DNA from: a virus
Taxonomy: Duplodnaviria; Caudoviricetes
DNA length: 64,000 bases
IMG/VR virus record: IMGVR_UViG_3300046660_000364
Span: 2,201-66,200 of that record
Reading direction: 5' to 3' (one strand)
The first letter of the stretch is position 1. Every line of letters starts with the position of its first letter. Positions 1 through 15,392 of this stretch are shown in pieces. The notes beneath the pieces were generated by a model. That model searched no databases, had not been told where the DNA came from, and was given only the letters and a program-made list of their open reading frames with translations. The position numbers were made by a program, and so were the translations under genes.

Positions 1-3000
1 TCCAGCAGGCGCAGGTATGCGTCACGCTCCTCGCCGCGCGGCCCGGACAAGATGGTCTGCTCGACCCGTTCCAGGCCCCGCTGCAGCAGCAGGTCGGCCA
101 GCCGCCCCGAGGTCACTTCGGTGTTGCCGGTGCCGAACTTGACGTACTTCTCGACCAGGCGCTCGTTGTCCGGCGGCGCGTACAGCATCGGCGTGATGGT
201 CTTCTTGACCGTCTTGTCGCCGCGCGCGCCGGCCAGGACCGCGTCGATCCCGTCGCCGTAGCGGTAGCCGCCGGTCGTGTGCAGGCGCGCGCCGCGCGTG
301 ACCACCTGGCCGGACTTGGCGTCGGTCGAGGTGCCGGTGCGCATCAGCGCGAACACTTTGTTCGTGCGCTCGTTACGGAAGAAGCCGAGGAACTTGTCGC
401 CCCAGCGGGCCGCCTCCTGCTGCGCCTGGCTGAACGGGTTGAAGTGGGTCGGGTGGGTCAGTTCCAGCTCGACATAGCGGGTGGTCGCGCCGGTGCGCTT
501 GTCCTCGTAGACGACCTCGTCACGCAGCTTGGCCACCTTGTCGGCGCGCAGCGTCTCCATGCCGGCGTCAAACGTCCCCTGCGCCTTGGCGCGCTCGATG
601 GTTTCCTCGAGGCGGCGGAAGAACTCGTCGAACACGACGTCCTGGCGGGTGGTCTCCAGCGACAGCAGGCGGTTCAGGAACTGCGGCACGGTCGGCAGCT
701 TGCTGTAGTTCAGCGCGCCGGTCTGGACGTCGATCAGGCCGTTCAGGCCGAGCGCCGCGGTCGTCTCGGTGAAGTTGAGCGAGGCCTGGCCGTTGTACAT
801 GTCGACGAACAGGTTGTGCAGGGCGTCGATGGCGTGCTGGGATTCCAGGTTGTCGGTGGCCGAGAACATGCCCTGGCCGCCGGTTTCCCGCTGGCCCTTG
901 GTCAGCGCGCCCAGCTGGTCCAGGCGCCGCGCGATCGAGGAAATGAAGCGCTTTTGCGCCTTCAAATTCGTGGTCGGCAGCACGTAGTGCGGCTGGTTCG
1001 CCTCGTTCGAGCGGTGGGTGCGGCCGAAACCCTGCACCGCGTTGTTGGCGCGCCAGCCCGGCTGCACCAGGTAGTGGACGCGGCGGCGCTGGTTCTTGAC
1101 GTTCAGGTCCGACTGGAACGAGTAGCCGGTGCCGCCGGCGTCGGAGAACACCAGCACGCGCTTCTTGTCGGCCATGAAGGCGTCGGCGTCGGCCGGCACG
1201 CTGGAGGCCGGGCGCTTTTCTTCGACCACCGTAAAACTGCCGGTCTTCTTGTCCTGCACCTGCACGAAGCGGCGGCCGCGGCCGGTGATCTCGGCGACGT
1301 TGCTGGTGCCGAACGCGCGCAGGATCATGTCGAGCGGGTTGTCCGGCACGCGGATCTGCTCGAGGTTCTTCACCAGCTGGTCGCGCAGCGCCACCATTTC
1401 GCGGTTGAACACCGGGTTGCCCTTGGCATCCACCACCGGGCGGGTCTGCTTGGCGCCGTTCTCGTCGGTGTATTCCTCGTGCTGCTGCACCGGGAACGAG
1501 TTGCGCACGTAGTTGATGAGGGTTTCGCGCGGGGTGAAGTCGAAATCCTCGGGCACGGCGTCGTCGTCGTCGGCGATCTTCGCCGCTTGCCGTTCCTGCT
1601 CGGCCTCGTTGGTGTTCACCAGCTGCATGACGACCGCGTGGCCGGCGTCCAGGTCGCGCTGGGCGGCCTCGACGATCGACGGCATCTGCATGGACGTGAT
1701 GACGTGGTTGAAGAAGCGCTGGTGGCTGCCCCAGAACTGGGCCAGCGCGGCGCTTTTCGCCTTCGGGTTCTTGTCCTGCAGGGTAGCCTTGAGGGCGGCG
1801 TCGATGTTCTGCAGCACGCCCTGCCAGGCGCGCGCCAGCTCGTTGTAGATGTCGGTCTGCAGCGGGGTCAGCTCGTGCTCGAGGCGGTCGTAGGTGACGC
1901 CGTCGAACGACAGCGAACGCGCCAGGTAGGAACCCTGCGCCTTCATGTCGCGCGAGACCAGTTCCATCGCCGCCACGCCGCCGGACTCGATGCCGCCGAT
2001 GAAATCCGTGACCTTGGCGAACGCCGAGCCTTCGCCCCACAGGCCCAGGCGGCTTGCATAGCCCAGGTTGTGGACTTCGGTGGCGCCGGTGGCCGAGACG
2101 TAGACGATGCGCGCGTTCGGCAGCGCCGCCTGCAGCGCCAGGCCGGCCAGCGCCTTGGCCGCCGGCTTGGTCTTGCCGCGCTTGCCCTTGCGCTCGACCA
2201 CGTTGCCCATGTTGTGGGCCTCGTCGAACGCGATCACGCCGTCGAAATCCTTGCCCAGCCAGTCGACGATCTGCTGCAGGCGCGACTTGCCGCCGGCCTT
2301 CTTGTCTTCCTTCAGGTGGCTGATGCCGCCCCAGCCGCTGTTGCCGCCGACCTTGCTCAGTTCGTCGAAGCGCACGGTGGTCTGCACGCCGTTGGCGAGC
2401 GCGATCTTGGCCTTGTGGCCGCGCGTCTCCCACGACACCAGGGTGCCGGGGCGACCGCGGAACTCGACCGCGGTGCCCGCCGGGTAGGTTTTCTTGAGCT
2501 GCTCGGCCGACATGGTGCCGTCGCCGGCCAGGCCGGCGCCGCCCTGCTGCAGGGTGCTGCCCGAGCGCAGCGTGTCGTAGGTCGTGAACAGGATGCCGCT
2601 CTTGGCGTCGATCGTGGCGTCGGCCTTGAACTTGTTGTGTGGCAGCAGCTGGTCGGGGTTGCCCGAGACGCCGCCGAAGTCGCGCTTGGCATCGCGCAGC
2701 AGGCCCTGCTTGGCCGACAGCCAGACCGCCTTGGTGCGGCCCTGGCGCTGGTTGTCGAGCAGGATGCCGGCGATCTCGCGGCCCTTGCCGACGCCGGTGC
2801 CGTCGCCGATGAAGAAGCCGCGCCGTTCCTTGTTCCCCGGCAGCATCTGGCTGTGCGCCTGGCCGGCGTACACCACCGCCTCGAGCTGGGCCAGCGACAG
2901 CATGCCCTGCTCGATCACGGCTTTCGGCAGGTTCGGGGCGTAGGATGGGGCCGGTGGCAGCACGGCCGCCATGGCCGAGGACTGGACCAGCTTGCCCGGG

Positions 3001-6000
3001 TGCGCCTTGGCGCCCGGGATCGAGAGGCGCTGCGGGGTGTAGTTCTCGAAGATCGCGTCGGACAGCTCGCCGGTGGCGGCGGCCTGGTCGGTCGACTCGA
3101 CCGTGACTTCGCCCTTTACGGGGCGTTCGCCACCATCGCGTTGTACAGGTTCTCGATCAGCAGTTCCGCTGCGTCCTCGGGTGTTTCCTGATCCGCCAGT
3201 TCCTCGGCCGTCAGCACCACGTCCTCCGGGCTTTCCGGGTTGGTCAGGAACCGCACCGCCTTTTTCGGCTCCCAGCTGGTTGCCATCGCGTTGACCTGCG
3301 CCATCATCCGGTCCTCGTCCGGGTCGCCCGGACTCGCCGGCACCGGATTGATCCCGTTCTCCAGACCCCAGCGGATCAGCGTCAGCACCGCCGGCTCGGT
3401 CGCCAGTGGTTTCTGGCCCGGCAGGAACGCGATCGCCGCCTTGTTGATCGGCAGCTGGTTCACCAGGAGCGTACGCGCCATCCGTATTTTGAGGAGCTTG
3501 TCGTTCATTGCGGATACCCTCCAGCAGTGCCGGCAGTTCGGCCAGCGTTTTGACCTGGCCGGTCACGACCGTGCCCGTGGTCGGGCCGGTCTTGTCGATG
3601 ACCAGGATCTGGTTGTCGAACGTGGTGCCGTACTTGGCATAGTTGCTGCCGTCGACACCAATGTTGACACGCACATTATAGTCCCGTCGGATCTGGGACC
3701 ACCATTTCTTGAACGCCGGCTTGTCGGCGGCCATGCCGTTGCCGACGATCGCCACCAGGCGCCCGCCCTCGCTCAGGCGTTTCAGGGCCTGCTCGATGTG
3801 CAGCGCGCCGTTCATGGTGTCGCGCGCGCCCTGGATGCGCCCGGCGGTCGCGGAGAACGGCGGGTTCATCAGGATCACGCCCGGCTTGACCTCGTCGGGC
3901 AGGATGTTGTGCAGCTGCTCGGCGTTCTCCTGGAACAGGCGCGCCTCGGGCAGCACCGTTTTCAGCACTTCGGCGCGGCGCGAGGACAGCTCGTTGACGA
4001 CGACGTCGGCTCCGGCCAGCTTGGCGTAGATCGCCAGGCTGCCGGTGCCGGCCGACGGCTCCAGCACCTGCTCGCCGGGCCGGATGTTGGCCAGCCAGGC
4101 GGCGGCGAACGCCTCCGAGGGCGGGGTCGAGAACTGCTGGTACTCGTCCATTTCCTCGGTGCGGCGGCTCTGGGTGGCCAGCATCTGGGTCCACTTGTCG
4201 AGCTGCTCGATCTTGTGGACCGCGTCGGTGGCGGACCCGTCCGGCGTCACCTGCTGGGCCATGATGTGGCGGTTCACGCCCGCTTCCATCGCGTCGTAGG
4301 CGTCCTTGACGCTGTACTTGCCCTCGGCCTGGGTGCCGCCGAAGGCCTTGTCGGCCGCCTCGAACAGCTGCTTGCTGCCGAAGGTCTGGCCGCTGGCCAG
4401 CCACTGCTGGACCTGCTGCGCGATCCGCTCGGTGCTGGACGCCGGCGCCGACAGGTTGGCCGACAGGCCCTGCTCCTTGGCGAACTGGATCGCGTACGGG
4501 CGGATGCCGGGGCCGAAGTGCTGGATCAGCATCTTGAACAGGTCGACCAGGGTTTTACCGGCCGCCTGGAACGCCACCAGCGCCTTCTCGAAGTGCGGCT
4601 TCGCGGCCTTGTACGAGTCCTCGTCGAAACCGGCCGGGAACGATTTCAGGGCGTTGCCGCCGAACAGCTGGATCAGGCCTTTCAGCGACTCCTCGATGCC
4701 GGTCACGCCGAGCTTGGCCGCCTCGCCGATCAGCTGCTTGGCGCTCTTTTCCTGCTCGGCCGACAGCGTCGGCGCGGCCTTCGGGCCAGTCTTGACGATG
4801 AGCTTGGCCTGCAGCTTGGTCTTGGCCTGGTCCCAGTTGATCGACTTGAGGAACGCTTCGCGCCCTTCCTTGATCGACACCAGCGTGTACGACTTGCCGC
4901 CCGGGGTCTGGCGCATTTCGCCGCCGCCGTCCCAGGTGACGTCGTACTCGGGGGTCTTGGTGTGGAACAGGCCGAAACCCTTGTGCTCGGTGTACTGGCC
5001 CGGCATGTCGTGGATGATCGACAGGCCGCGCGACGGATCGGCCAGCAGGAACACCTGGCCGTCGTCGATCAGCCCGATCAGGTGCTGGTAATCCTCCTGG
5101 GTCCAGTGGTCGGCTTTCGCGGCTTCGCCCGGGTCTTTCGCCTCGGGCTGCTCCTGCTGCTCCTCGGCCAGCTCGCTCTCGGCCTGGTCGAACAGGTTCT
5201 CGAGATCCGATTCGGACAGCGGGCCGGCGGCCGGTTCGGCGGCCTGCTGCTGCTGTTTCTCCAGTTCCTCGCGCAGGCGGGCCGCCTCGGCATCGCGCTC
5301 GGCCTGCTCGCGCGCCTGCTGCTCGGCGCGCGCCTGTTCCTGCCTGGCGCGCTCGGCCTCGTCCTTGGCGTACTGGTTGGCCAGCGCCGTCGCTTCCTTC
5401 TGCGCCAGGTGCGCGCGCACCATCGACGGGATCTGCGCTTTGAGCGACTCGATCGCTTCGCGGTACTGGCGGTCCTGGTCCGGGAATTCCTGGTTGAACT
5501 TCTCGATGTCGAGCGTGACGCCGCTGTCGGAGAACTGCAGCGCCTTCACCAGCGCCTGCACGCCGTCGTTGAACAGCTTGCGTTCCTCGCCCATCGGGTA
5601 CGGGGCGCCCTTGTATTGCGGCGCCTTGATCTTGCCTTCTCCGACCCAGTCCGGGTTGACCAGGTAGTTCGAGACGCCCCCGAGGGTGTCGTGGACCCAG
5701 CTCTCGGCCGCGCGCGCCAGCAGCTCCTTCGGGTTGCCCCAGTAGTCGGCGCCCATCGTGTCGGCTTCGCGCTTGTAGTCGGTCGGCATCGCGCTCTGCT
5801 GCCCGGTTTCATAGCGCAGCACGCCCTCGGCGTTCTGGATCAGGCCGGCCTCGCTCTTGAGGTCGTAGATCGGCGTGTTGCGGCGGCCGCGGCGCATGAA
5901 GCTGCGCCCGCGCACCGCCAGCTGCAGCTTGCCCGCCAGCGCCTCGACATCGCGGGCGGACGACAGCAGCTTGACCAGGCGCTGCACGGCCGTGTGCTGG

Positions 6001-9000
6001 ACCCAGCTGGTGCTCGTATAGCCCTGGTTCAGGGCGTGGTCGAGCGCGTGGAACCACTCGTGGGCCACGGTGCCGTCGCCCTTGGTGTTGGTGACGTTGA
6101 TGACGGGAACCGTGCCGCCGTCCGGGTGCGGCTGCTTGGCCTGGAAGTGCGCGGCGTGGCGGCCGTGGCCGAGCGCGCCGATGGCGAAGTGCAGCGTGCC
6201 GCCCAGGCCGATGTGCTTCGGGCTGATCCCGAGCAGGTTGGCCAGGTCCATGAAGGCGTCGAAGGCGTAGTTCAGGTGGTCCTGGTCCTGGCGCGCGGCG
6301 ACGTAGCGGCCGAAACCGACGTCGGCAAAGCCGAACGTCTCCTTCATCTGCTGCGGGGTGACGTTCTGGCCGTTGCGGTGGTCGGGCAGCTTCTCGCCCT
6401 CGCGCACCACGCGGTCCAGTTTCGGCACCAGCAGCGCCTGCTTGCGGTTGCTGGGGCCGTCCGGCTCGGCTTCGTTCTTGAGCAGCCCGGTGGTCTGGCG
6501 GCCTTCCGGCTCGAACCCGTACGACGAGCCGCGCATCATGCGGTGCAGCTGCTCGCCGGCCTCGCTCAGGCGGTTGTTGGACCAGTTGCGGGCGGTCTTG
6601 TCCTTGACCGTGTAGTCCTGGAAGCGCTGCGCCGCCTCGGCGATATTGGTAACGCCGGCCAGGGCTTCGGCCACGCCCTGCAGGCGGGCGTTGTAGGTGG
6701 CGGCGGCCTCCTGCAGCAGCTCGAGGCGGGCCTGGGCGTCGGCGTCCTCCATGCTGGTGCGCTTGCCGGTGGCGTCGTGGATGTACGGGTAGGCGCGGCC
6801 GTCGAGGAAGCGGGCGATCTTGCCCGAATCGCTCTCGCGGTAGCCGATCTCGCCATACAGGCTGGCCAGCGGCCCGGTGTCGAGCAGCCATTCCTGGAAC
6901 GGCTTGATGTCGTCGCGCAGCGCCGTGATGTAGCGCTTGACGCCCGGGGTGGCGCCCTCGCCGGCGACGTTGGCGAACGCCTCCACGCGCGAGGCCTGGT
7001 CCTTGATGATCTGGTAGGACCCGGTCATGTTGTCGGCCGTGACCTCCTTGATCCTGCGCTTGGACTCGTCGAACCAGCGGCGCAGCGCGGCGCCGGTGTT
7101 TTCCAGCTTCTTGCCGCGGCGCCCGGTGAACCAGGCTTGCCCCTCGTCCGACTTGATCCAGGCGGCGCCGGCCTCGTAGCCCTGCTGCAGCTGCGTGACC
7201 TGCGGCAGGGTCGACTTGGTCTTGCCGGCCAGCGCGTGGTCGAAGCCGGTCTTGAACAGCGCGATCATGTCCGGCGGGATGCCGACGGCCTGCGCGGCCT
7301 TGACCAGTTCGGCCTGGTAGACGGCCGGATCGCGGTCGATTTCCTTCTCGGCGCGTTTCTCCGCGCGCTTGAGGTATTTATACAGCGACTCGTAGAATTC
7401 CTTGGGCAGCGTGGGCTGGCCGTTGATGACCAGGTTGTCCAGCATCAGGCGGCGGTCGGCGTCGATCTCGCCGGCCTTTTCCCTGGCCACCCAGTCCTTG
7501 ATCGGGCCGCTGGCGACGCTGCCGAACTCGGTCGACAGGCGCCCATCCATTGTCTTCATCAGGGCCGCGTCCTTCGACAGCACGCCGAACAGCTCGCGCT
7601 GGCCGGCACGCACCAGTTTTTCGCGCTTCTTGGCGAACTCGGCCTCCTTGACGCGGCGGTTGTCCCACCAGTCGAACGCATCGCTGCGGGCGGCCTCGAC
7701 CGCCTGCTGCAGTGACAGGTTCTGCTGGAAGCCGATGACCTTGTTGCTGTACGGGTAGCTGACCTCGACAGTATAGGTGTCGGCCTGGATGCGGCCGAAC
7801 CCGCCGCGGCCGGCCGGCTTGACCTCGAACGTGGCATCGCCGAAGCGTACCTTGCCGTGGTCTTTCAGGTCGGTCTCGAACTGCTTGGGCGACATCGGGC
7901 GCGAACCGGCCAGGGCGCCTTCGTCCTCCGGTGCGGCTTCCGGCTTGTTCTCGGCTTCGTTCAGATCGTCGATGACGTCGTCGAGCACGCGGGCCTGCGG
8001 GCCGAACTTGCGCATCAGGCGGCTCGACGCCTCCTCCAGCAGATCCGCCAGGTCGATGACGGTCTTTTCCTTGCCCAGTTCCTCGATCACGCTGCGGATG
8101 CCCATGCGGGCGGCGCCTTCCGGGGTGTTGCGGTCGGCGTCGAAGCCGTCGAGCAGCTTCTGCAGGCGCTCGGCCACGGCGGTGCGGACGGTTTTCGGGT
8201 AGCGGCGGGTGCCAGGCGCATCCTGCTTGGCCCCGGCTTTCGGTTCGGCCTTGACCTCGGGCCTGGCTTCGGCCTTGACCTCGGCTTTCACCGCGTCGTT
8301 CAGGCGGCGTGCGGCATCTTCCAGCAGCGTGTCGACGCTGGCCGGGCTGCGGTGCACCTGGTAGTCGCGTCGGTAGCTGTTCCAGTTCGACAGGATCTGG
8401 TGGGTGTCGTGCTTGGCAGCGGCCAGCGCATCGGCGACGGTGTCGCCCATACCGATCCGGCGCAGCAGCGTGGCGATGCCTTCGCCGCGCGCAAAAGCGT
8501 CGACGTGGGCGCCGCCGGCCGGGATCTCTCCCTGGCGCGGGGCCAGCTTCTGGTACTCGCGCGAGTAGCCGTCGGACTGTTCGCGCAGCGCGCGCATGGC
8601 GGCCAGCACGTTCTCGCGCGGGCCGGCGTCCAGCGCGCCGAGCCAGCCTTTCAGGGCCGGGGCGTTCTTGGCGTTCTGCTCCAGCAGCTGGGCGAATAGC
8701 TCCTTGGTCAGCGGCTGCTGGCCGTCGTGCTGCTGGTGGTAGGCGGCGTACACCGACTCGAGGTCGGCCGGCAGCTTGCCGCGCACCAGCTCGGTCGCGC
8801 CCTTGAGCCAGTGCGTGTAGGTGTCGCTCTCGAACGGATTGAGGGCTTCGGTCTTGGGCTGCATACCCGGCGCCACCGTCGTCGACTGCAGGCGCAGGTC
8901 ACGCGCGCCAGCCGCGGTGACGCGCCCGGCCGGCAGCTTGCCCAGTTCGGCGCGGGCGCTCTTGATGCCCTTGTTGACGGCCCGGGTCTCGTCGGCGGTC

Positions 9001-12000
9001 AGCTTGGTGTGCAGGCGCTTCTCCAGGCTGGCGATATGCTGCAGCAGGGCGACCCGGCGCGTGTCCTGCTCGACCGACGCAAACCCCTTGACCAGGCGTT
9101 TGGCCTGCGCGGTGTCCTCGGCCAGCAGTGCCTGCTGGGCGGCCTCGGCTTCGCGCGCTCCCTTGACGGCGGTCAGGATGGCGCCGGTGGTGCGCAGCGA
9201 ATCCTTGCCGTGCTCGGACAGGTCTTGGCGGATCGCCTGGCCGGCAGCCTCGATCGCCAGCATGCGCGATGCGCTCGGCGTCGAGTCCAGCCGTGGCCTG
9301 AGCAGGGCACGGCCGGTGGCGTTGCCGCCCTTGCCGCCCTGCTGGTAGCCGAACGAATAGGCCCACTGCTGGTTTGGCGCCTGCGCGACCTGGATCTCGA
9401 ACGAGAACTGTTCCTTGCCGGTACGCTTGTTGTCGTATTTCAGCGCCGTCTCGTAGTCGGGGAAATAGCCGTCTTTCGGCGCGGTGTCCTCGGCATAGCC
9501 CCACTTGACGGCCAGGGTTTTGAGTTCCTCGTTGTGGGCGCCGTGGTGGTCGCTGATGAACTGGCGCGCGGCGCGGTCAAGATAGCCGGGCAGCTTGTCG
9601 AGGCTGTCGGTGAACACCTGCACGTCACGCGCCTCGATCTTCCCGTCCTTGGCCATCTGGCCCAGCGCCTTCTCGAACGCGGCCTTGTAGCTGTCCTTGA
9701 AGTCGACGAAGCGGTTGCCGGTGCCAGCCAGGTCGGCCTGCGCGACCAGCTGCTTGTCGGCGCCCAGCGCGGCCTCGACCTGCTCGCGGATCTGCGCCTT
9801 GCGCTTCTCGACGTCGTCGGCCAGCTCGCCCGGCGCGGCCTGCTCGGCCGGGGTCAGGACGTCGAGGAAGCCGCTGTGGAATTCCTGCTGGCGCTCGACC
9901 TTTTCCGGGGTGTCGTCCAGGTTGACGATAAAGTATCGGTTTTCGCCGACGATCATTTCGCGCTCGACCGTGCCCATGCGGCCGGCGAAGCGGTTGGCGT
10001 CTTTCAGCGACACGCCCGCGACCGGGGCCTTGGTCAGGCGCTTGATGCGCACGCGCACGCCCACCTCGAGCGGCGCCGGACGTTCCGGCAGGGTGCCCAG
10101 GCGCTCGTGCACGGTGCGCAGGTATTCGCCGAGCTGGCCGCGCTGCTGGCCGATGAAGCCGACCGTGCCCGCCACCTTGGCGTCGGGGCCGACGAAGCCG
10201 GCCGCGCGCAGCTGCTCGGTGTAGGCGGTCGCCACCGGCGCGTACAGCTGGCCGCCGGCGATATACACCTCGCTGAAATTCTTGTCCTTGAAGTCGCTCA
10301 CCATCACGCCTTCGGCGATCAGCTCCTGCTGGCGCGCGGGCGTCATCTTCTCGTCGTAGCTCGACAGGACGGCGCCGGCGCGCACCAGGCCGTGCTTGGC
10401 CGACAGGACGTAGACATCCATCGCGTTCTTCGGCATCCACTTGCGCAGGACGTCGAACATCGCGCCCTTGTACAGGTCGATCGCGGCGTGGCGGCCAGGC
10501 AGCTTTTCGTCGGTGCAGGCGATGATGAGCAGCGGCTTGGCTTCCTTCTCGTCGTAGACGTGGATGCGCTGCTGGTTCTGGACGACAGGCAGCGCCTCGG
10601 CGCGCTCGCGCTCGTAGCGGCGCACGGCGCCGTCGATGTACGGACGCACCTTGTCCGGGTCCATTCCCAGCAGTTTCTCGCGCAGCGCCGCGATCGTGTT
10701 CGGCCGGATGTGGTCGGGCAGACCCAGCTCGAGTTCCTTGTTGACCAGGTTGCCGGTGCCGAGCGAGATCCCGGCGATCGCGCGCTTTTCGTCCTCGGTG
10801 AAGGAGCGGGTCTTGCCCGGCTTGGCGGCTTCCTCGGTCTCGTCCTGCTTGCTGGCCAGCGCCTCGTCGATCCGGGCCTGCACCGCATCGGCGGTTTTCG
10901 CCACCTCGGCGGTGATCTGGACGTCGCGCGCCTTCTGTTCCTGATCGAACGCCTTGCGCTCTTTCTCGTCGAGCTGCTTGAGGGCGGCTTCCCTGGCCTT
11001 GCGGTGCTCGGCGGCGGCGCCCTTGTACTCGTCGGCCAGCGGCTGCAGGCGGGCGACGTCGGCGTCGTCGGTCAGCTTCTGGCTGGCCTGCTCCACCATG
11101 TCCCAGGCGAATTCAGCCTTGTCCTCCTCGAGCTTGGCGCGGTGCGCGGCGTCCCGTTGCTGGCCGGACGGCGGCGCTGCGGGTTCCTCTGGCTTCTGCT
11201 CCTGCTTGGCCGCCGGCACCAGGCCGCCGTCGCGCAGGTAGACGCTGCCGTTGCTGTCGACGTGTACGGCCGGATCGCGTTTCAGGATGTCGATCAGCGG
11301 ACGCGCCGGCTTCATGATGTTCTTGGCCTGCAGGTTTTCCACCACCAGCTGGCTGGCCAGGTCGCGCTTGAACTGGTCCCAGGCCACGCCGTCCGGGTTC
11401 AGGCTGCGCACCTTGCCGTCGGCATCCTTGAGTTTCAGGTTCTTGTCCGAGATCGACTCGACGCTCTGCTGCTTGCCGTTCAGCTCGAACTTGTCGCCGA
11501 CCTTCATGTTGGCGGCGGCGATGTTGGCCCAGGCGTGGTCGTTGTAGGCGTCCTGCTCGCTGGTGACGGCCTTCTGGAAGCCGAGCCGGCGGTTCGGGTA
11601 GTCGACCCCGGCCGGCTTGTCCTGCTGTGCATCAGGCGTGGCGGCCTTCGCTTCCGGCTTGGCCTTCTCCTCCTGCTGTGCGGCTGGCACCGGCCCGCCG
11701 TCGCGCAGGGACACCGCCTCGGCGCGCACGGCCTCGACGTACCTGGCCGAGTTGGCGTCGACCTGGTCGGCCTGCGCTTTCTCGCGCTCGGACAGTTCGT
11801 CGCCGCGACGGGCCAGGTTGCTGCGGTTCTTCGCGCTATGGAACAGGTTCATGTGCGCGGCCGACAGCTCGCCCTGCTTGTCCAGCAGCGGCTGCAGGCG
11901 GGCGCGCGCGGCGGCATCGGCCGGGTTCCACACGTCCAGCACCGCGTTGTAGGCGCGGCCGGCGGCGTGCCACCAGGCGCCGTGGTACAGCGCGGCCTCG

Positions 12001-15000
12001 ACCGGGTCCTTCGGCGCTTGCGGGTCCTTCGACTGGCGCTTGCCGTCGACGACCTTGCTGGTCGCCTTGGTGCCCACGCCCGAATTGACGTCGAACGCGG
12101 CGACCGGCGCCGGGGCCTGGTCCTTGGCCGGTTCGGCCGGCGGCTGCTCCTGGGCGGGCGCCGCGGGCGCCTGCTCCTGCTGGCCGGACGGCTTGCCCCA
12201 GTCCTTGGCCGAGACCGGCTTGTCGGTCAGCGCGACCGGCGTCAGGCGGTGCTTGCCGTCACCGATCGTGTCGCTCTCGTACAGCTTGCCCTCGTGCTCG
12301 ACGAACTGGCGCAGATCGGTGCCGAAGTTGCCGGCCGGGGCCTGCTCGCCTTCTGGCAGCGCCAGGCTCACCCACACGCTTTGCTTGCCCTGGGTGGAGC
12401 TGGTGACTTTGTAGGTGCGCCCGCCCATCTCGAAATACGGCGACTGCTGGATCTTCTCGGCGCCGGCCTTGAACTGCTCCGGGGTCGGATTCGGGACCTC
12501 GAGCGTGCCATCCTTCTGCTCGGGCGCGGCCGGGGCCTGCGGCTCGGGCTTGGCCGGCGCCTGCTGTTCCTGCGCCAGCTCGGCCTCGGCCTGGTCGAAC
12601 GCCGCGTGCAGCTGGTCCTCGCTGAGGGCGGCGTCGTGCGCCGGCTGCGCGCTGCCATCCTGCGCCAGCGTCTGCTGCGCCTGGCTGTACGGAATGAAGC
12701 GCACGTCCGGGAACCGCGCCTGCAGGGCCGGGATCGCGGCGGCGACCGGATCGGACACCAGTACCGACCTGATGCCGTCGGCCAGCGTCTTGTTCCTATC
12801 GGACAACAGGATGAACGGACCATCCTTGTAGGCGCCACCCGAGGCGGTGCCCAGGCCGGCGCCGACGCCGGCGGCGGCGTCCCTGGCGACCGTCAGCGGG
12901 GCGGTGTCGAACTGGCGGTTCGGGTTGATGCCGTTGGCGAGGATGTTCAGCAGCTGGCCCATCGGGTTGCTCTTGGCCAGGCCGTGGGCGTCGTACTGCG
13001 AACCGACGTCGGGGGTCACGCCGCCGGACTCGTTCCAGGCGTCGAAGTGGTCGTGGTGCTGGCGCGTGACGACGCCGTCGGCGCCGGGCGCGAACTGGGT
13101 GGCGTTCCATGCCTGCACGACGTCCTTGTTTTCCGGCGCGTACAGCGCGCGCAGGCCGTCGTGCATGACGTCGGCCGTGTGCGGGCTGGCCGGCTGGGCT
13201 GGGGCCGGGATCTGCATGGCCGGGAAATACGCCGGGTTGTAGGCGGTGGTCGTGTTGCCGCCCTTGAGCCACTGCTTGAGGCCGTCGACGGTGGTGGCGG
13301 TGATGTTCTCGCCGCCCTGCCAGCCCTGGGTATAGTGCGCGTCATACGCCTTGCGGGCCTGTTCCTGGCTGTTATAGCCCAGCATGACCTTGTGCTCGTC
13401 GAATTCGCCGGTGTCCTGGTTGATCTGGTCGACGATGAAGACGTGGTGGCTGGCCGGGTTCGGACCGATATACGTGTCGACCGCATCGCCGTCGGCGCCC
13501 TTGGTGCCACGGATGTAGCCGTAGTGGTCCTGCATCTGGGTCGACCATGGCGTGCCATCCGGGTCCTTGCCCTCGCGGGTAGTGCCGACCGGGTTCTCGA
13601 TCATCAGGTCGATGCCCTGCAGCTCGCCCTCGCCCTTCTTGTAGTTGCCGGCGTGCTTCTGCGCCTCGGACGGCGGCTTGCGGTCGTTCTGCTCGCTGGT
13701 GGCGGCCTGGTGCGCACCGGCGTCTAGCGCGGCGGCGGCGGCCGGGTCGATGCGGGTGATGTTCTCGATCGGGATGCCTGCGGTCGAGCCTTCGACCATT
13801 GCGTACCTGCCGCTGGGCGAGAACCCGGTGATGCGGGTGCCGCCCTCGAACATGTCCTCGCCGTTCAGCGTCACCTGCACCTGCTCGCCGACCTGCAGGC
13901 CGACCGGCGCGGCCGGGGCCTGCGCGGCGGCGGGATCGACGGCCGGGGTGGCGGCGTCGGCCGGCGGGGCTGCGGCGCCCTGCTCGAGCGCCGGGTCCTG
14001 GACCGGGCGCACACCGAACGCGCCGGCCTGGACCGGGTGCGGCACGACCTCGTGCGGGATGCCGGTGGTGCGGGTGCGGTCGTCGGCCTGCTTCTGCGCG
14101 GCCTCCTGGCGCATCGGCAGCATCGGGGTGGCCAGGCCGGCGGCGGTGGCCATCGGCCCGGCGGGCGGGGCGCCCATGTCGGCGCCGGCGTCGGGAGAGT
14201 CGAGCGGGTCGATGCCCGGCTGGGTGGCGGCCGGCGCGGCCGGGATCGCGGCCGGGTCGGCGAACAGCGAACCATCCAGCGTCAGCGGCCTGTTGGCCGA
14301 GATCGCGCGGGCGGCGTTGACGCGGAAATTCGTGGCGGCCTGCTGGTCGACCTTGGCGATCTCGGGCGCGATCTCGGCGGCAATGCGGGTGCGCTGCTGC
14401 TGGTCGGCGTCGGCCGAGGTCAGGACGTCGTTGCGCTGCTGCTGGCGGTGGGCGTTCACGCCCATGCCGGCCAGGCCGAACGGCGCCAGCAGCGCGGTCA
14501 TGCCGATGGTCGGCAGGATCGCCTCCTTGGCCGCGTCCCACGGCTTCTTGTCGTCGATGCCGTAGCGCGCCTCGGTGTAGGCCTCGGCGGCGTTCTGGCC
14601 CATTTCGGTGCCGACCTCGCCGATCATGGTCTCGGGCAGCTGGTGCAGCCAGGGTTTCAGCACCTTGGTGTTGGTGGCGCCCTGCAGCGCCTGCTCGGCG
14701 GCGGTGCCGGTGGTCTTGCCGATCGCGCGCCCGGCCAGGCCGAACATCTTGCCGCCGAGATAAGTGCCGGCCGTCTCGCCGAACCACTCCTCGGCGCCGG
14801 TCTCGCGTGCGGCGGCCAGGGCGTCCGCCTCGGGAAGCCCCTTGGCGCGCGCCTTTTCCAGCGTTTCCTGGGCCTGCGCCATGCCGGCCGGGGCCGAACC
14901 CAGCACGGAACCGGCCAGCAGGGCGGCGCCCTCGGGCGCACCGACCCCGGAGGCGATCAGGCCAACCCCGACCGCCGGCAGGATCGACTGCGGGATCATG

Positions 15001-15392
15001 CGCGCGCCCGAGGCGAGCGTGTTGGTCACGACACCGTGCTGGGCCTCCTGCGGCTGCAGGTCGGGCCGCTTTTCCTGCTCGCGCCCGTAGTCGGCGATGC
15101 TCTTGCCGATCTCGTAGACCTTGTTGCCGGGGTCCGAGGTCCACTGGATCGCCTGGCCCGCCATCTTCGGCAGGTCCGACACCGCGCCGGCCTTGAGCTG
15201 GTTCAGGACCTCGCCGACCGCCCCGCGCCGTTCGACACCCGCTGGCAGGTCGTACTTGTCGAAGTAGTTGCCCTTGGCGCTGTGCTGGTCGTACTTGTCG
15301 AAGTAGTTGGCCTTCGGCGCCGCGGCTGCCGGCGCGGGCGCGGCGGGGTCGAGCGGATTCGGGACCAGCGTCGGCTTGGTATCGTCGGACAT
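1..15392 (-). CDS. Giant polyvalent (DarB-like) virion/ejected protein, >=5130 aa, 3' end outside window; InPase-like, DUF6884-like, LPD1/HExxH, N6-adenine MTase and strawberry-notch SF2 helicase domains
   Basis: AGGAG RBS then ATG at 15392 (MSDDTKPTLVPNP). Frame read manually at several points down to position 3, and the track lists no terminated ORF in this frame. Motifs: HYGYIRGTKGADGDAVD/FDEHKVMLG (~13250-13710), IIACTDEK..LYKG..LSAKHGLV (~10120-10540), AHEWFHALD and ELLARAAESWV (~5540-6460), EPSAGTG and NPPF (~3590-4200), GDGTGVGKGRE, DEAH, QGFGRTHRSN (~620-3060). Confidence 0.9.
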   Translation of the reverse strand, partial: MSDDTKPTLVPNPLDPAAPAPAAAAPKANYFDKYDQHSAKGNYFDKYDLPAGVERRGAVGEVLNQLKAGAVSDLPKMAGQAIQWTSDPGNKVYEIGKSIADYGREQEKRPDLQPQEAQHGVVTNTLASGARMIPQSILPAVGVGLIASGVGAPEGAALLAGSVLGSAPAGMAQAQETLEKARAKGLPEADALAAARETGAEEWFGETAGTYLGGKMFGLAGRAIGKTTGTAAEQALQGATNTKVLKPWLHQLPETMIGEVGTEMGQNAAEAYTEARYGIDDKKPWDAAKEAILPTIGMTALLAPFGLAGMGVNAHRQQQRNDVLTSADADQQQRTRIAAEIAPEIAKVDQQAATNFRVNAARAISANRPLTLDGSLFADPAAIPAAPAATQPGIDPLDSPDAGADMGAPPAGPMATAAGLATPMLPMRQEAAQKQADDRTRTTGIPHEVVPHPVQAGAFGVRPVQDPALEQGAAAPPADAATPAVDPAAAQAPAAPVGLQVGEQVQVTLNGEDMFEGGTRITGFSPSGRYAMVEGSTAGIPIENITRIDPAAAAALDAGAHQAATSEQNDRKPPSEAQKHAGNYKKGEGELQGIDLMIENPVGTTREGKDPDGTPWSTQMQDHYGYIRGTKGADGDAVDTYIGPNPASHHVFIVDQINQDTGEFDEHKVMLGYNSQEQARKAYDAHYTQGWQGGENITATTVDGLKQWLKGGNTTTAYNPAYFPAMQIPAPAQPASPHTADVMHDGLRALYAPENKDVVQAWNATQFAPGADGVVTRQHHDHFDAWNESGGVTPDVGSQYDAHGLAKSNPMGQLLNILANGINPNRQFDTAPLTVARDAAAGVGAGLGTASGGAYKDGPFILLSDRNKTLADGIRSVLVSDPVAAAIPALQARFPDVRFIPYSQAQQTLAQDGSAQPAHDAALSEDQLHAAFDQAEAELAQEQQAPAKPEPQAPAAPEQKDGTLEVPNPTPEQFKAGAEKIQQSPYFEMGGRTYKVTSSTQGKQSVWVSLALPEGEQAPAGNFGTDLRQFVEHEGKLYESDTIGDGKHRLTPVALTDKPVSAKDWGKPSGQQEQAPAAPAQEQPPAEPAKDQAPAPVAAFDVNSGVGTKATSKVVDGKRQSKDPQAPKDPVEAALYHGAWWHAAGRAYNAVLDVWNPADAAARARLQPLLDKQGELSAAHMNLFHSAKNRSNLARRGDELSEREKAQADQVDANSARYVEAVRAEAVSLRDGGPVPAAQQEEKAKPEAKAATPDAQQDKPAGVDYPNRRLGFQKAVTSEQDAYNDHAWANIAAANMKVGDKFELNGKQQSVESISDKNLKLKDADGKVRSLNPDGVAWDQFKRDLASQLVVENLQAKNIMKPARPLIDILKRDPAVHVDSNGSVYLRDGGLVPAAKQEQKPEEPAAPPSGQQRDAAHRAKLEEDKAEFAWDMVEQASQKLTDDADVARLQPLADEYKGAAAEHRKAREAALKQLDEKERKAFDQEQKARDVQITAEVAKTADAVQARIDEALASKQDETEEAAKPGKTRSFTEDEKRAIAGISLGTGNLVNKELELGLPDHIRPNTIAALREKLLGMDPDKVRPYIDGAVRRYERERAEALPVVQNQQRIHVYDEKEAKPLLIIACTDEKLPGRHAAIDLYKGAMFDVLRKWMPKNAMDVYVLSAKHGLVRAGAVLSSYDEKMTPARQQELIAEGVMVSDFKDKNFSEVYIAGGQLYAPVATAYTEQLRAAGFVGPDAKVAGTVGFIGQQRGQLGEYLRTVHERLGTLPERPAPLEVGVRVRIKRLTKAPVAGVSLKDANRFAGRMGTVEREMIVGENRYFIVNLDDTPEKVERQQEFHSGFLDVLTPAEQAAPGELADDVEKRKAQIREQVEAALGADKQLVAQADLAGTGNRFVDFKDSYKAAFEKALGQMAKDGKIEARDVQVFTDSLDKLPGYLDRAARQFISDHHGAHNEELKTLAVKWGYAEDTAPKDGYFPDYETALKYDNKRTGKEQFSFEIQVAQAPNQQWAYSFGYQQGGKGGNATGRALLRPRLDSTPSASRMLAIEAAGQAIRQDLSEHGKDSLRTTGAILTAVKGAREAEAAQQALLAEDTAQAKRLVKGFASVEQDTRRVALLQHIASLEKRLHTKLTADETRAVNKGIKSARAELGKLPAGRVTAAGARDLRLQSTTVAPGMQPKTEALNPFESDTYTHWLKGATELVRGKLPADLESVYAAYHQQHDGQQPLTKELFAQLLEQNAKNAPALKGWLGALDAGPRENVLAAMRALREQSDGYSREYQKLAPRQGEIPAGGAHVDAFARGEGIATLLRRIGMGDTVADALAAAKHDTHQILSNWNSYRRDYQVHRSPASVDTLLEDAARRLNDAVKAEVKAEARPEVKAEPKAGAKQDAPGTRRYPKTVRTAVAERLQKLLDGFDADRNTPEGAARMGIRSVIEELGKEKTVIDLADLLEEASSRLMRKFGPQARVLDDVIDDLNEAENKPEAAPEDEGALAGSRPMSPKQFETDLKDHGKVRFGDATFEVKPAGRGGFGRIQADTYTVEVSYPYSNKVIGFQQNLSLQQAVEAARSDAFDWWDNRRVKEAEFAKKREKLVRAGQRELFGVLSKDAALMKTMDGRLSTEFGSVASGPIKDWVAREKAGEIDADRRLMLDNLVINGQPTLPKEFYESLYKYLKRAEKRAEKEIDRDPAVYQAELVKAAQAVGIPPDMIALFKTGFDHALAGKTKSTLPQVTQLQQGYEAGAAWIKSDEGQAWFTGRRGKKLENTGAALRRWFDESKRRIKEVTADNMTGSYQIIKDQASRVEAFANVAGEGATPGVKRYITALRDDIKPFQEWLLDTGPLASLYGEIGYRESDSGKIARFLDGRAYPYIHDATGKRTSMEDADAQARLELLQEAAATYNARLQGVAEALAGVTNIAEAAQRFQDYTVKDKTARNWSNNRLSEAGEQLHRMMRGSSYGFEPEGRQTTGLLKNEAEPDGPSNRKQALLVPKLDRVVREGEKLPDHRNGQNVTPQQMKETFGFADVGFGRYVAARQDQDHLNYAFDAFMDLANLLGISPKHIGLGGTLHFAIGALGHGRHAAHFQAKQPHPDGGTVPVINVTNTKGDGTVAHEWFHALDHALNQGYTSTSWVQHTAVQRLVKLLSSARDVEALAGKLQLAVRGRSFMRRGRRNTPIYDLKSEAGLIQNAEGVLRYETGQQSAMPTDYKREADTMGADYWGNPKELLARAAESWVHDTLGGVSNYLVNPDWVGEGKIKAPQYKGAPYPMGEERKLFNDGVQALVKALQFSDSGVTLDIEKFNQEFPDQDRQYREAIESLKAQIPSMVRAHLAQKEATALANQYAKDEAERARQEQARAEQQAREQAERDAEAARLREELEKQQQQAAEPAAGPLSESDLENLFDQAESELAEEQQEQPEAKDPGEAAKADHWTQEDYQHLIGLIDDGQVFLLADPSRGLSIIHDMPGQYTEHKGFGLFHTKTPEYDVTWDGGGEMRQTPGGKSYTLVSIKEGREAFLKSINWDQAKTKLQAKLIVKTGPKAAPTLSAEQEKSAKQLIGEAAKLGVTGIEESLKGLIQLFGGNALKSFPAGFDEDSYKAAKPHFEKALVAFQAAGKTLVDLFKMLIQHFGPGIRPYAIQFAKEQGLSANLSAPASSTERIAQQVQQWLASGQTFGSKQLFEAADKAFGGTQAEGKYSVKDAYDAMEAGVNRHIMAQQVTPDGSATDAVHKIEQLDKWTQMLATQSRRTEEMDEYQQFSTPPSEAFAAAWLANIRPGEQVLEPSAGTGSLAIYAKLAGADVVVNELSSRRAEVLKTVLPEARLFQENAEQLHNILPDEVKPGVILMNPPFSATAGRIQGARDTMNGALHIEQALKRLSEGGRLVAIVGNGMAADKPAFKKWWSQIRRDYNVRVNIGVDGSNYAKYGTTFDNQILVIDKTGPTTGTVVTGQVKTLAELPALLEGIRNERQAPQNTDGAYAPGEPAADQQGGDRVPAGPETTGDRAGGADADPLGSGERDQSGAGESGRPGRGPDDGAGQRDGNQLGAEKGGAVPDQPGKPGGRGADGRGTGGSGNTRGRSGTADREPVQRDGGERPVKGEVTVESTDQAAATGELSDAIFENYTPQRLSIPGAKAHPGKLVQSSAMAAVLPPAPSYAPNLPKAVIEQGMLSLAQLEAVVYAGQAHSQMLPGNKERRGFFIGDGTGVGKGREIAGILLDNQRQGRTKAVWLSAKQGLLRDAKRDFGGVSGNPDQLLPHNKFKADATIDAKSGILFTTYDTLRSGSTLQQGGAGLAGDGTMSAEQLKKTYPAGTAVEFRGRPGTLVSWETRGHKAKIALANGVQTTVRFDELSKVGGNSGWGGISHLKEDKKAGGKSRLQQIVDWLGKDFDGVIAFDEAHNMGNVVERKGKRGKTKPAAKALAGLALQAALPNARIVYVSATGATEVHNLGYASRLGLWGEGSAFAKVTDFIGGIESGGVAAMELVSRDMKAQGSYLARSLSFDGVTYDRLEHELTPLQTDIYNELARAWQGVLQNIDAALKATLQDKNPKAKSAALAQFWGSHQRFFNHVITSMQMPSIVEAAQRDLDAGHAVVMQLVNTNEAEQERQAAKIADDDDAVPEDFDFTPRETLINYVRNSFPVQQHEEYTDENGAKQTRPVVDAKGNPVFNREMVALRDQLVKNLEQIRVPDNPLDMILRAFGTSNVAEITGRGRRFVQVQDKKTGSFTVVEEKRPASSVPADADAFMADKKRVLVFSDAGGTGYSFQSDLNVKNQRRRVHYLVQPGWRANNAVQGFGRTHRSNEANQPHYVLPTTNLKAQKRFISSIARRLDQLGALTKGQRETGGQGMFSATDNLESQHAIDALHNLFVDMYNGQASLNFTETTAALGLNGLIDVQTGALNYSKLPTVPQFLNRLLSLETTRQDVVFDEFFRRLEETIERAKAQGTFDAGMETLRADKVAKLRDEVVYEDKRTGATTRYVELELTHPTHFNPFSQAQQEAARWGDKFLGFFRNERTNKVFALMRTGTSTDAKSGQVVTRGARLHTTGGYRYGDGIDAVLAGARGDKTVKKTITPMLYAPPDNERLVEKYVKFGTGNTEVTSGRLADLLLQRGLERVEQTILSGPRGEERDAYLRLL
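3116..3508 (-). CDS. Nested out-of-frame small acidic protein (130 aa) inside the giant ORF
   Basis: GGAGGG SD 8 nt before ATG; normal globular composition and GC3-rich codons in this frame, while the giant frame becomes a G/R/D/P-rich linker over the same interval. Confidence 0.75.
   Translation of the reverse strand: MNDKLLKIRMARTLLVNQLPINKAAIAFLPGQKPLATEPAVLTLIRWGLENGINPVPASPGDPDEDRMMAQVNAMATSWEPKKAVRFLTNPESPEDVVLTAEELADQETPEDAAELLIENLYNAMVANAP
15248..15309. repeat. 23-bp direct repeat encoding a duplicated NYFDKYD motif at the giant protein N-terminus
   Basis: ggtcgtacttgtcgaagtagttg at 15248-15270 and 15287-15309. Confidence 0.9.

Follow-up and report, generated by a model that had tools for sequence, protein, structure and literature searches.

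Comparative evidence for a 130-residue protein encoded out of frame within the methyltransferase-helicase tether of a giant phage polyvalent protein

Results

A second open reading frame lies within the giant gene

We analyzed a stretch of 64,000 nucleotides (hereafter the window), which covers positions 2,201 to 66,200 of the 66.2 kb IMG/VR virus record IMGVR_UViG_3300046660_000364; the GC content of this genome is 68%. The minus strand of the window carries a giant gene for a polyvalent protein, and this protein contains an N6-adenine-type methyltransferase (MTase) region followed by a strawberry-notch-type (Sno) helicase. Between the two, the giant frame stays open but turns into a low-complexity tether, rich in G, R, P and D, that leads from the MTase end (...LAELPALLEGIRNER) to the helicase start (VKGEVTVES...DAIFENYTPQRL). 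The same DNA carries an open reading frame (ORF) of its own in the +1 frame (Table 1). This nested ORF begins with an ATG at 3508-3506, preceded at a spacing of 8 nt by the Shine-Dalgarno (SD)-like sequence GGAGGG (3522-3517), and ends with a TAA at 3118-3116. An initial annotation, made from the sequence alone, had pointed out the ORF with these signals and had placed the low-complexity stretch exactly between the MTase and the helicase; both are there as described. It had also proposed true dual coding. We consider it very likely that the interval is genuinely dual-coding, giving both a tethered giant polypeptide and a separately initiated protein of 130 residues (P0001), as the comparative data below indicate.

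Table 1. Features of the giant gene around the nested open reading frame (window coordinates).
Feature	Coordinates	Strand	Remarks
Nested gene	3116..3508	minus	+1 frame of giant gene; 130 codons plus TAA; product P0001
SD-like GGAGGG	3517..3522	minus	8 nt upstream of nested ATG; within giant-frame L-E-G codons
Giant-frame tether, MTase to helicase	3120..3527	minus	giant residues 3955-4090, ~136 residues; same DNA as nested gene
N6-adenine-type MTase region	3528..4511	minus	translation contains ILMNPPFSATAG; ends just before the LLEG motif carrying the nested SD
Sno-type helicase, N-terminal lobe	1803..3119	minus	starts directly after nested stop; AAA_34; Helicase_C_4 farther downstream
Giant polyvalent-protein gene	3..15392	minus	open frame, 5130 residues to window edge

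Coding composition shifts into the nested frame

We computed the GC content at the three codon positions of the giant frame. Positions 1/2/3 have values of 0.69/0.45/0.92 overall and of about 0.88/0.66/0.45 from ~3520 to ~3120; the latter values correspond to the usual coding pattern moved into the nested frame. Scanning the whole 15.4-kb giant gene for a switch in composition, we found that 3602-3063 alone was flagged. The giant gene holds 32 off-frame open stretches of at least 90 residues, and a coding-like pattern occurs only in the one at 3562..3119 (0.64/0.45/0.86); the remaining 31 are shadow-like. We also determined the codon adaptation index (CAI), with the codon usage of the giant gene itself as reference. 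The tether has a CAI of 0.124 in the giant frame, while 157 other giant-frame windows range from 0.616 to 0.858. Conversely, the nested frame reaches 0.540, and +1-frame windows elsewhere in the giant gene lie between 0.102 and 0.298. The initial annotation had claimed that codon bias switches to the nested frame here and that the other off-frame ORFs are shadows; both claims are borne out by these values.

The assembly was checked against contigs from three rhizosphere metagenome runs of three studies; one of the runs may be the source sample, and the runs listed for the locus include no RNA run. These contigs tile 2800-3800 with no inserted or deleted letters, and identical pieces cross both ORF boundaries. 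The only differences in a variant strain from run X2 are substitutions; counted by hand from the substitution table, 15 of them fall within the ORF, with 10 at third, 3 at first and 2 at second positions of the nested codons. The worry that two compensating indel errors at the boundaries had created the arrangement is thereby removed.

An ORF of this kind could, in principle, arise by chance or as a shadow in a GC-rich genome, or from such compensating assembly indels, and no nested gene would then exist. The GC content of the genome and the 31 other off-frame open stretches in the same gene would suit that explanation. However, the nested ORF is the sole off-frame stretch of the giant gene with coding-type composition, the contigs of the three runs contain no indels, and, as detailed below, relatives with a GC content as low as 0.37 conserve the ORF and keep both frames open, its family comprises 58 clusters and its fold is confidently predicted. 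We regard the absence of a nested gene as next to impossible.

Both frames are kept open in relatives

Searching with the nested protein, we found viral relatives at 74-82% and at 33% identity, and both frames are open in them. To keep the survey non-circular, we fetched 80 viral loci by the helicase N-terminal lobe only (alignment A4); 78 of these have upstream DNA. Open stretches of at least 50 residues in the three forward frames of the 1.5 kb upstream were then scanned with a hidden Markov model (HMM) of the family at E ≤ 1e-3. The HMM was positive in 56 of the 78 loci at first pass (the GC content of these loci is 0.37-0.70), in 70 after one rebuild and in 71 at convergence. All 71 matches lie in relative frame +1, and frames 0 and +2 have none.

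The MTase and helicase parts share one stop-free frame in 78/78 loci. Over the nested interval, the giant frame contains no stop in 64 distinct loci, whereas synonymous reshuffling of the nested protein predicts about 338. The expected stops amount to 172.7 for the 18 loci with GC below 0.5, 97.6 for the 21 loci at 0.5-0.6 and 67.6 for the 25 loci above 0.6. Reshuffling the tether codons, we expected about 108 stops in the nested frame of the same 64 loci, and there are none. In individual relatives, the probability that the giant frame is open by chance falls to P=0.013 (L008), P=0.013 (L012) and P<0.0002 (L015).

These counts also bear on the possibility that the giant frame is untranslated across the interval, so that three genes (one from the N-terminus to the MTase, the small gene, and the helicase) only look fused. 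The giant frame could indeed be open by chance in this genome (P=0.56), and one locus, L013, has a frameshifted host gene in which the MTase and helicase parts do not share a frame and the nested ORF is truncated. However, three separate genes do not explain zero stops against ~338 expected, nor a common frame in all 78 loci that have both parts. Moreover, no ATG, GTG or TTG is available in the giant frame from the nested stop up to where helicase conservation begins. We hold this arrangement of three genes to be highly improbable.

The nested gene is present in all four distinct close relatives examined (L004/L055, L005/L019, L006/L018 and L007/L020; 74-82% amino acid identity in the nested protein). 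The same layout occurs outside viral records, in Rugamonas apoptosis LX47W (L012), where an element retains the nested gene in an intact host frame of 2236 codons, and in a plasmid of Methylomonas sp. AM2-LC with 46% GC (CP157007.1; L015). The junction region matches 588 plasmid records, many of them annotated as "strawberry notch family protein". Two alphaproteobacterial plasmid Sno proteins examined out of the 588 (L016 and L017) both have shorter tethers and no family member. The plasmid record CP157007.1 carries the nested gene and is without any annotation; the annotated records of two relatives list no nested gene in the host gene, and neither carries it. A tblastn search of plasmids and cultured phages with P0001 gave no match at 1e-3. 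Among 400 genomes of the class of G003 (one genome unscored), the family was found in G003 only.

With the junction as query, a single cultured phage was retrieved, Vibrio phage 1.232.O, which has the MTase and carries neither the Sno helicase nor a family member. As a separate observation, this phage (1.232.O._10N.261.51.E11, MG592596.1; GC 45%) contains a protein-like open stretch of 135 residues in the +1 frame (L103:3680-4084) of a giant gene annotated as a 3292-residue "N-6 adenine-specific DNA methylase". The stretch has no match to the family HMM and may be a different nested gene in a culturable phage.

Selection acts on the nested protein

We compared eight disjoint pairs of relatives (1072 codons) and counted 136/128/236 differences at nested positions 1/2/3. 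The third position of the giant frame, which is nested position 2, is constrained like a second codon position, so selection sees the nested protein, and the tether only as an absence of stops. By this pattern, together with the conserved motifs and the confident fold described below, purifying selection maintains the protein sequence of the nested frame. The tether, for its part, tracks the composition of its genome: it is G/R/P/D-rich in the window and S/T/G/N-rich in the plasmid of 46% GC.

Mean pairwise identity is 0.22 for the nested protein, 0.50 for the MTase and 0.55 for the helicase, which indicates that the nested protein evolves faster than the host domains. Its divergence is correlated with that of the helicase (Spearman rho 0.34) to the same extent as that of the MTase is (rho 0.35), a Mantel test gave 0 of 500, and no pair combines a nested protein more than 50% identical with a helicase less than 60% identical. 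From these distances, the nested protein co-diverges with the MTase and the helicase as well as those do with each other.

Start signals are written into the codons of the giant frame

We compared 60 distinct start regions from relatives at the position matching the nested ATG. The start codon is ATG in 56 and GTG in 4, and an SD-like motif lies 5-20 nt upstream in 48 of the 60. Most of these signals are written into a giant-frame motif at the MTase edge, LLEG(I/V)R(N/D)(D/E/A)R, which reads LLEGIRNE in the window. GGAGG sits in the L-E-G codons, and the ATG straddles the (N/D) codon and the next one; in the window, the Asn codon contributes the first two ATG bases. The LLEG motif is missing from L016 and L017, the two plasmid Sno proteins that have no nested gene.

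A scan of 2900-4200 for sigma-70-like promoters gave no minus-strand site ahead of the nested start, so the nested gene is most likely read from the mRNA of the giant gene. The same scan gave two sigma-70-like matches in antisense orientation, on the plus strand at 3280-3307 and 3652-3679, in or beside the nested interval; shuffled sequences predict 0.1 such matches in this region. Because the SD-like motif and the ATG are conserved, no promoter precedes the gene and no separate helicase start follows the nested stop, independent internal initiation is the best-supported mechanism for the nested product, as far as sequence comparison can tell.

A programmed +1 frameshift near the MTase end was considered as another route. 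It would produce a truncated protein from the N-terminus to the MTase with a helical C-terminal domain, instead of or besides the free protein. The nested frame is open for 18 codons upstream of the ATG in the window and for ~100 codons in L012, and a database protein, P0009, has residues of the MTase C-terminus fused in frame with the nested protein, as expected from such a frameshift. Yet P0009 is a single metagenome-derived sequence with a possible indel, and the window has an in-frame stop 18 codons upstream. A frameshift also leaves unexplained why ATG or GTG is kept in 60/60 distinct start regions, with an SD-like motif in 48, and why free-standing homologs start at the equivalent Met. 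We judge the frameshift route improbable.

The nested protein belongs to a family of small acidic proteins

Performing a phmmer search of 1.84 billion representative proteins with P0001, we obtained 58 matches at E ≤ 1e-3, 16 of them at E ≤ 1e-10, so the concern that the protein might lack homologs does not hold. The matches define a family of ~125-residue proteins in 58 representative clusters, of which 55 are 59-184 residues long and align to their own C-terminus as P0001 does. Three matches are longer: P0030 (252 residues, two tandem copies), P0047 (289 residues, with an unrelated N-terminal extension) and P0044 (1663 residues), a repeat protein that we regard as a spurious match. In-frame fusion of the domain to a long MTase or helicase protein occurs in none of the 58 matches. 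P0030 was further seen to open with an off-frame reading of the MTase end, which is followed by the tandem duplicate of the nested protein.

The conserved motifs of the family, taken from sets of 39-60 sequences, include N-x-x-P-(L/I)-N-x-x-A, L-x-L-M-R-W-G-L and (T/S)-P-E-x-A-A-x-x-L-L-E. P0001 has an isoelectric point (pI) of 4.46 and a net charge of -8.5; the median pI of 39 family members is 4.72. We predicted structures for both readings of the DNA with AlphaFold2. The nested protein, with a 39-row alignment of database proteins (A1), gave a mean predicted local distance difference test (pLDDT) score of 94.2, a predicted template modelling (pTM) score of 0.88 and seven helices. The giant-frame translations of the same DNA, in a 60-row alignment (A9) whose window row covers 3120-3509, i.e. 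the tether less its first 6 codons, gave a pLDDT of 58.9, a pTM of 0.14 and no secondary structure. The nested product is thus predicted to be a small, acidic, all-helical protein, and the tether is predicted to be disordered. A globular acidic protein is what the initial annotation had described, and the models agree with it.

Dual coding as the preferred reading

Four lines of evidence carry the dual-coding reading: a family match that is always in the +1 frame (71/78 loci), no giant-frame stops where ~338 are expected, a pLDDT of 94 for the nested protein against 59 for the tether, and the substitution pattern. Ribosomes in the giant frame would pass from the MTase through ~136 unconserved, poorly adapted codons, predicted to encode a disordered segment, into the helicase and make one tethered polypeptide. 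Other ribosomes would start at the ATG at 3508 by means of the GGAGGG located 8 nt upstream, signals that lie within the LLEGIRNE codons. Following the +1 frame as far as the TAA at 3116, they would make an acidic, all-helical protein of 130 residues as a second, free product. Selection would act on the amino acid sequence of the nested frame, and in the giant frame on openness and length only, so the tether would essentially be an off-frame shadow of the gene that it hosts. In this way, a small factor could be made from the same late mRNA as the MTase-helicase module and be kept free rather than fused.

Several observations weigh against this reading. In the window's own genome, it is unremarkable that the giant frame stays open across the nested ORF (P=0.56, by synonymous reshuffling of the nested protein); chance openness is high here because first positions of giant codons coincide with third positions of nested codons, at which T is seldom used. 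Since local openness is uninformative at 68% GC, the proof that both frames are kept open rests on the relatives of lower GC. The nested gene is absent from 7 of the 78 loci, the SD-like motif is absent from 12 of the 60 start regions, and the automatic start choice took an internal Met in a few loci. P0009 passes directly from C-terminal MTase residues to the nested frame, as would be expected of a frameshift product or of an indel. The two predicted folds rest on unmatched alignments, A1 being made of 39 database proteins and A9 of 60 locus translations. Free-standing copies of the gene are retained, suggesting that the nested protein is not strictly dependent on the giant protein. Finally, the function proposed below is a guess without a positive library or fold match.

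Tether length and free-standing copies fit a hosted gene

The initial annotation had suggested that the small gene might be a captured one that the polyprotein reads through. We measured the distance between the conserved anchors on either side of the tether. Its median is 168 residues (152-300) in the 71 loci with the gene. Of the seven loci without the gene, five have 85-93 residues, i.e. tethers about 80 residues shorter, and the other two have 145 and 328 residues. In viral overprinting, the codon-adapted and constrained frame is usually the older one. Most likely, the stretch already existed as a gene when it entered, or expanded, a shorter tether.

Free-standing copies of the gene exist as well. 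At L010, no similarity to the giant protein is present and the giant frame is closed; the neighbors encode a DUF3987 primase and an Eco57I-type MTase, along with a T5orf172-ResIII gene. The copy at L102, found on one short contig by a metagenome scan with the free-standing forms (alignment A8), adjoins a GDSL-like gene and an IS3-type transposase, their motifs being judged by eye. Free-standing homologs begin at the Met equivalent to that of the nested protein. In Rugamonas fusca (L011:3553-4536) and in an Aromatoleum metagenome-assembled genome (L014:3651-4260), the nested gene is intact within short host-gene remnants that cover residues 3819-4146 and 3858-4070 of the window protein, respectively. 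The L011 gene with its remnant was also seen to adjoin a large serine recombinase.

We built a quick tree with Shimodaira-Hasegawa-like approximate likelihood ratio test (SH-aLRT) support; it was midpoint-rooted for drawing, so that its root is arbitrary, and many of its forks are open. L010, L102, P0047, P0056 and P0052 fall inside a clade (SH-aLRT 98) with the window protein and other nested forms, which is suggestive of a derivation of the free forms from nested ones. The capture proposal is consistent with the constrained, codon-adapted nested frame and with the shorter tethers in 5/7 gene-less relatives; in the tree, free copies lie inside the nested clade. Taken together, the evidence on origin fits a hosted gene able to escape, without deciding between capture and escape.

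A more elaborate form of the hosted-gene account, which we find doubtful as a whole, is that the tether is the off-frame reading of a captured gene, that translation of this gene is coupled to the giant frame, and that its product is an anti-defence factor or a regulator of the MTase-helicase. A pre-existing small gene would have been taken into a short tether and then kept as an obligatorily separate polypeptide; at high GC, where the relevant frame has hardly any stops, such capture would be easy. Giant-frame ribosomes would have to traverse ~130 codons of very poor adaptation (CAI 0.12), and their passage could control initiation at the SD and ATG embedded there; such control could set the ratio of small to giant protein. 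A regulator encoded in cis would hold the MTase-helicase in check until packaging, or the product would be a new anti-defence factor.

A selfish insertion offers a different view of the same layout. In ShiLan, a mobile homing-endonuclease element, the inserted ORF is out of frame with its host, has a start codon of its own and closes with a TAA at the very end of the insert, and the stop-free host frame is read through it (PMC11855218). By analogy, the nested gene would be a mobile out-of-frame gene that homes into a tolerant loop or tether and is merely tolerated there. The likeness in layout, the shorter tethers of gene-less relatives and the fact that the nested frame is the codon-adapted one all agree with this. 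A homing element, however, would be expected to be sporadic, and the nested gene is near-universal (71/78) and occurs in all four distinct close relatives examined. Its divergence follows that of the host domains and gives no sign of a recent transfer; its product matches no HNH or other nuclease family at E ≤ 0.1, and no nuclease appears among the matches of the inconclusive fold searches (best Z 3.9). A selfish insertion seems quite improbable to us.

The nested protein could serve the MTase-helicase module

We searched function and fold libraries with the nested protein. P0001 matched no Pfam family at E ≤ 0.1, and so neither TnpV nor an HNH or other nuclease family. The family had no match in PHROGs, NCBIfam or PADLOC, apart from one PHROG for 1 of 39 members at E 0.0058. 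Foldseek searches of PDB and BFVD gave nothing under E 1, and the best E of a profile search of PDB was 0.17. In a wide VIA-align search the best Z was 3.9, which is below the noise level for helical models, and no nuclease was among the fold matches. The best score in the ESM Atlas was 0.80, for unnamed clusters. These fold searches are inconclusive and do not establish the predicted fold as new. Small antirestriction or anti-defence proteins such as Ocr, ArdA, ArdB/KlcA and DarA gave no sequence or fold match in the same libraries, the fold searches again being inconclusive. The initial annotation had proposed that the small protein may act on a neighbouring domain as its cognate inhibitor, chaperone or immunity partner. 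Co-folding of the nested protein (A5) with the MTase region (A6) and the helicase N-terminal lobe (A7) gave a score of 0.00 and no verdict, which speaks neither for nor against binding.

As a tentative guess, the nested protein may be a trans-acting accessory or anti-defence factor of an antirestriction-type MTase-helicase module. We make this suggestion because the gene is tied to the MTase-helicase junction in 71/78 loci, because its product is small, acidic and fast-evolving, and because it is never fused in frame and survives without the host gene.

Comparison with known nested genes

Long genes that are fully nested on the same strand are rare and are usually doubted in bacteria and phages. 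The present locus makes a strong comparative case for one, conserved over a GC range of 0.37-0.70.

ShiLan is similar in several respects: a complete out-of-frame gene sits in a methylase-bearing phage gene, with its start near the 5′ edge and its TAA at the 3′ edge, and the stop-free host read-through forms a loop that need not disturb the enzyme (PMC11855218). Unlike ShiLan, the nested protein has no nuclease signature in Pfam, PHROGs or NCBIfam (the fold searches being inconclusive), the gene lies in an inter-domain tether and not within the methylase fold, and it is near-universal and co-divergent with its host rather than a sporadic, actively homing element.

In the plasmid RSF1010, mobB is read in another frame inside mobA/repB, and MobB acts with MobA in mobilization; there, too, a small gene occupies the other frame of a two-domain fusion gene, with the MobA relaxase at the N-terminus and the RepB' primase at the C-terminus (PMC2200642). 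The host in our case is a phage polyvalent MTase-helicase, and the likeness drawn here is one of layout; as a precedent for an accessory partner, MobB is a lead only.

Among the spanin genes, Rz1 embedded in Rz is the classic example from phages, and the embedded class occurs also in Bcep22-like phages (PMC9144972). This pair shares with our locus a same-strand gene that is wholly embedded in the other frame of a phage gene and has its own start. Rz1, however, is a lipoprotein and acts in lysis paired with Rz, whereas the nested product looks cytoplasmic, acidic and helical, and the host stretch is a predicted disordered tether.

Polyvalent proteins with an MTase-helicase dyad have been described, with P1 DarB as the archetype and Sno-like versions mentioned (PMC5512222). 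Our host gene shares with that dyad the LPD1 domain, an adenine-MTase-type domain and a strawberry-notch-type SWI2/SNF2 ATPase. The passages of that paper covered here report no nested gene, and the words "overlapping", "frameshift" and "linker" occur nowhere in the paper (PMC5512222). Full-text searches of a library with few subscription journals gave no description of this nested gene.

The locus adds a protein family without a detectable relative in sequence or fold searches. It also indicates that what looks like a "disordered linker" in a giant polyvalent protein can be another gene's off-frame shadow, which affects the interpretation of such linkers and of their composition. Mutations that are synonymous in the giant frame can remove the nested start or add a nested stop, and would give a clean genetic test of what the hidden partner contributes to the antirestriction-type module.

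Further features of the giant gene

The giant frame continues past window positions 1-3 through the preceding 2200 bases of the record (L104), giving at least 5864 residues with zero stops. As it is still open at the end of the record, the giant gene is incomplete at its 3′ end. Searching the last 2000 residues of the giant protein against Pfam, we found LPD1, weak MTase models, AAA_34 (9.6e-113) and Helicase_C_4, the strawberry-notch C-terminal helicase domain (2.6e-84). The MTase region has weak matches to MTS (0.0021) and UPF0020, both below the cut-off, and a mean column identity of 45% over 60 loci; it contains NPPF, which we take to be the MTase motif. The host gene has the make-up of a strawberry-notch MTase-helicase, with an AAA_34 P-loop lobe, a Sno C-terminal helicase domain and the NPPF-bearing MTase before them.

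The helicase N-terminal lobe varies in length. The window and its closest relatives have an extra segment of ~75-100 residues (window 2223-2556, giant residues ~4280-4370), which is absent in most of the 60 aligned relatives; lobe lengths are 438-439 residues with it and ~335-375 residues otherwise. One relative (L004:4719-5743, which is the L055 contig; IMGVR_UViG_3300046506_000204) has an in-frame insert of ~1 kb in this lobe relative to the window. The lobe segment is 785 residues long in L055 and 681 in L077, compared with 439 in the window. No stop interrupts the insert of L055 and L077, which might represent an intein or a domain insertion.

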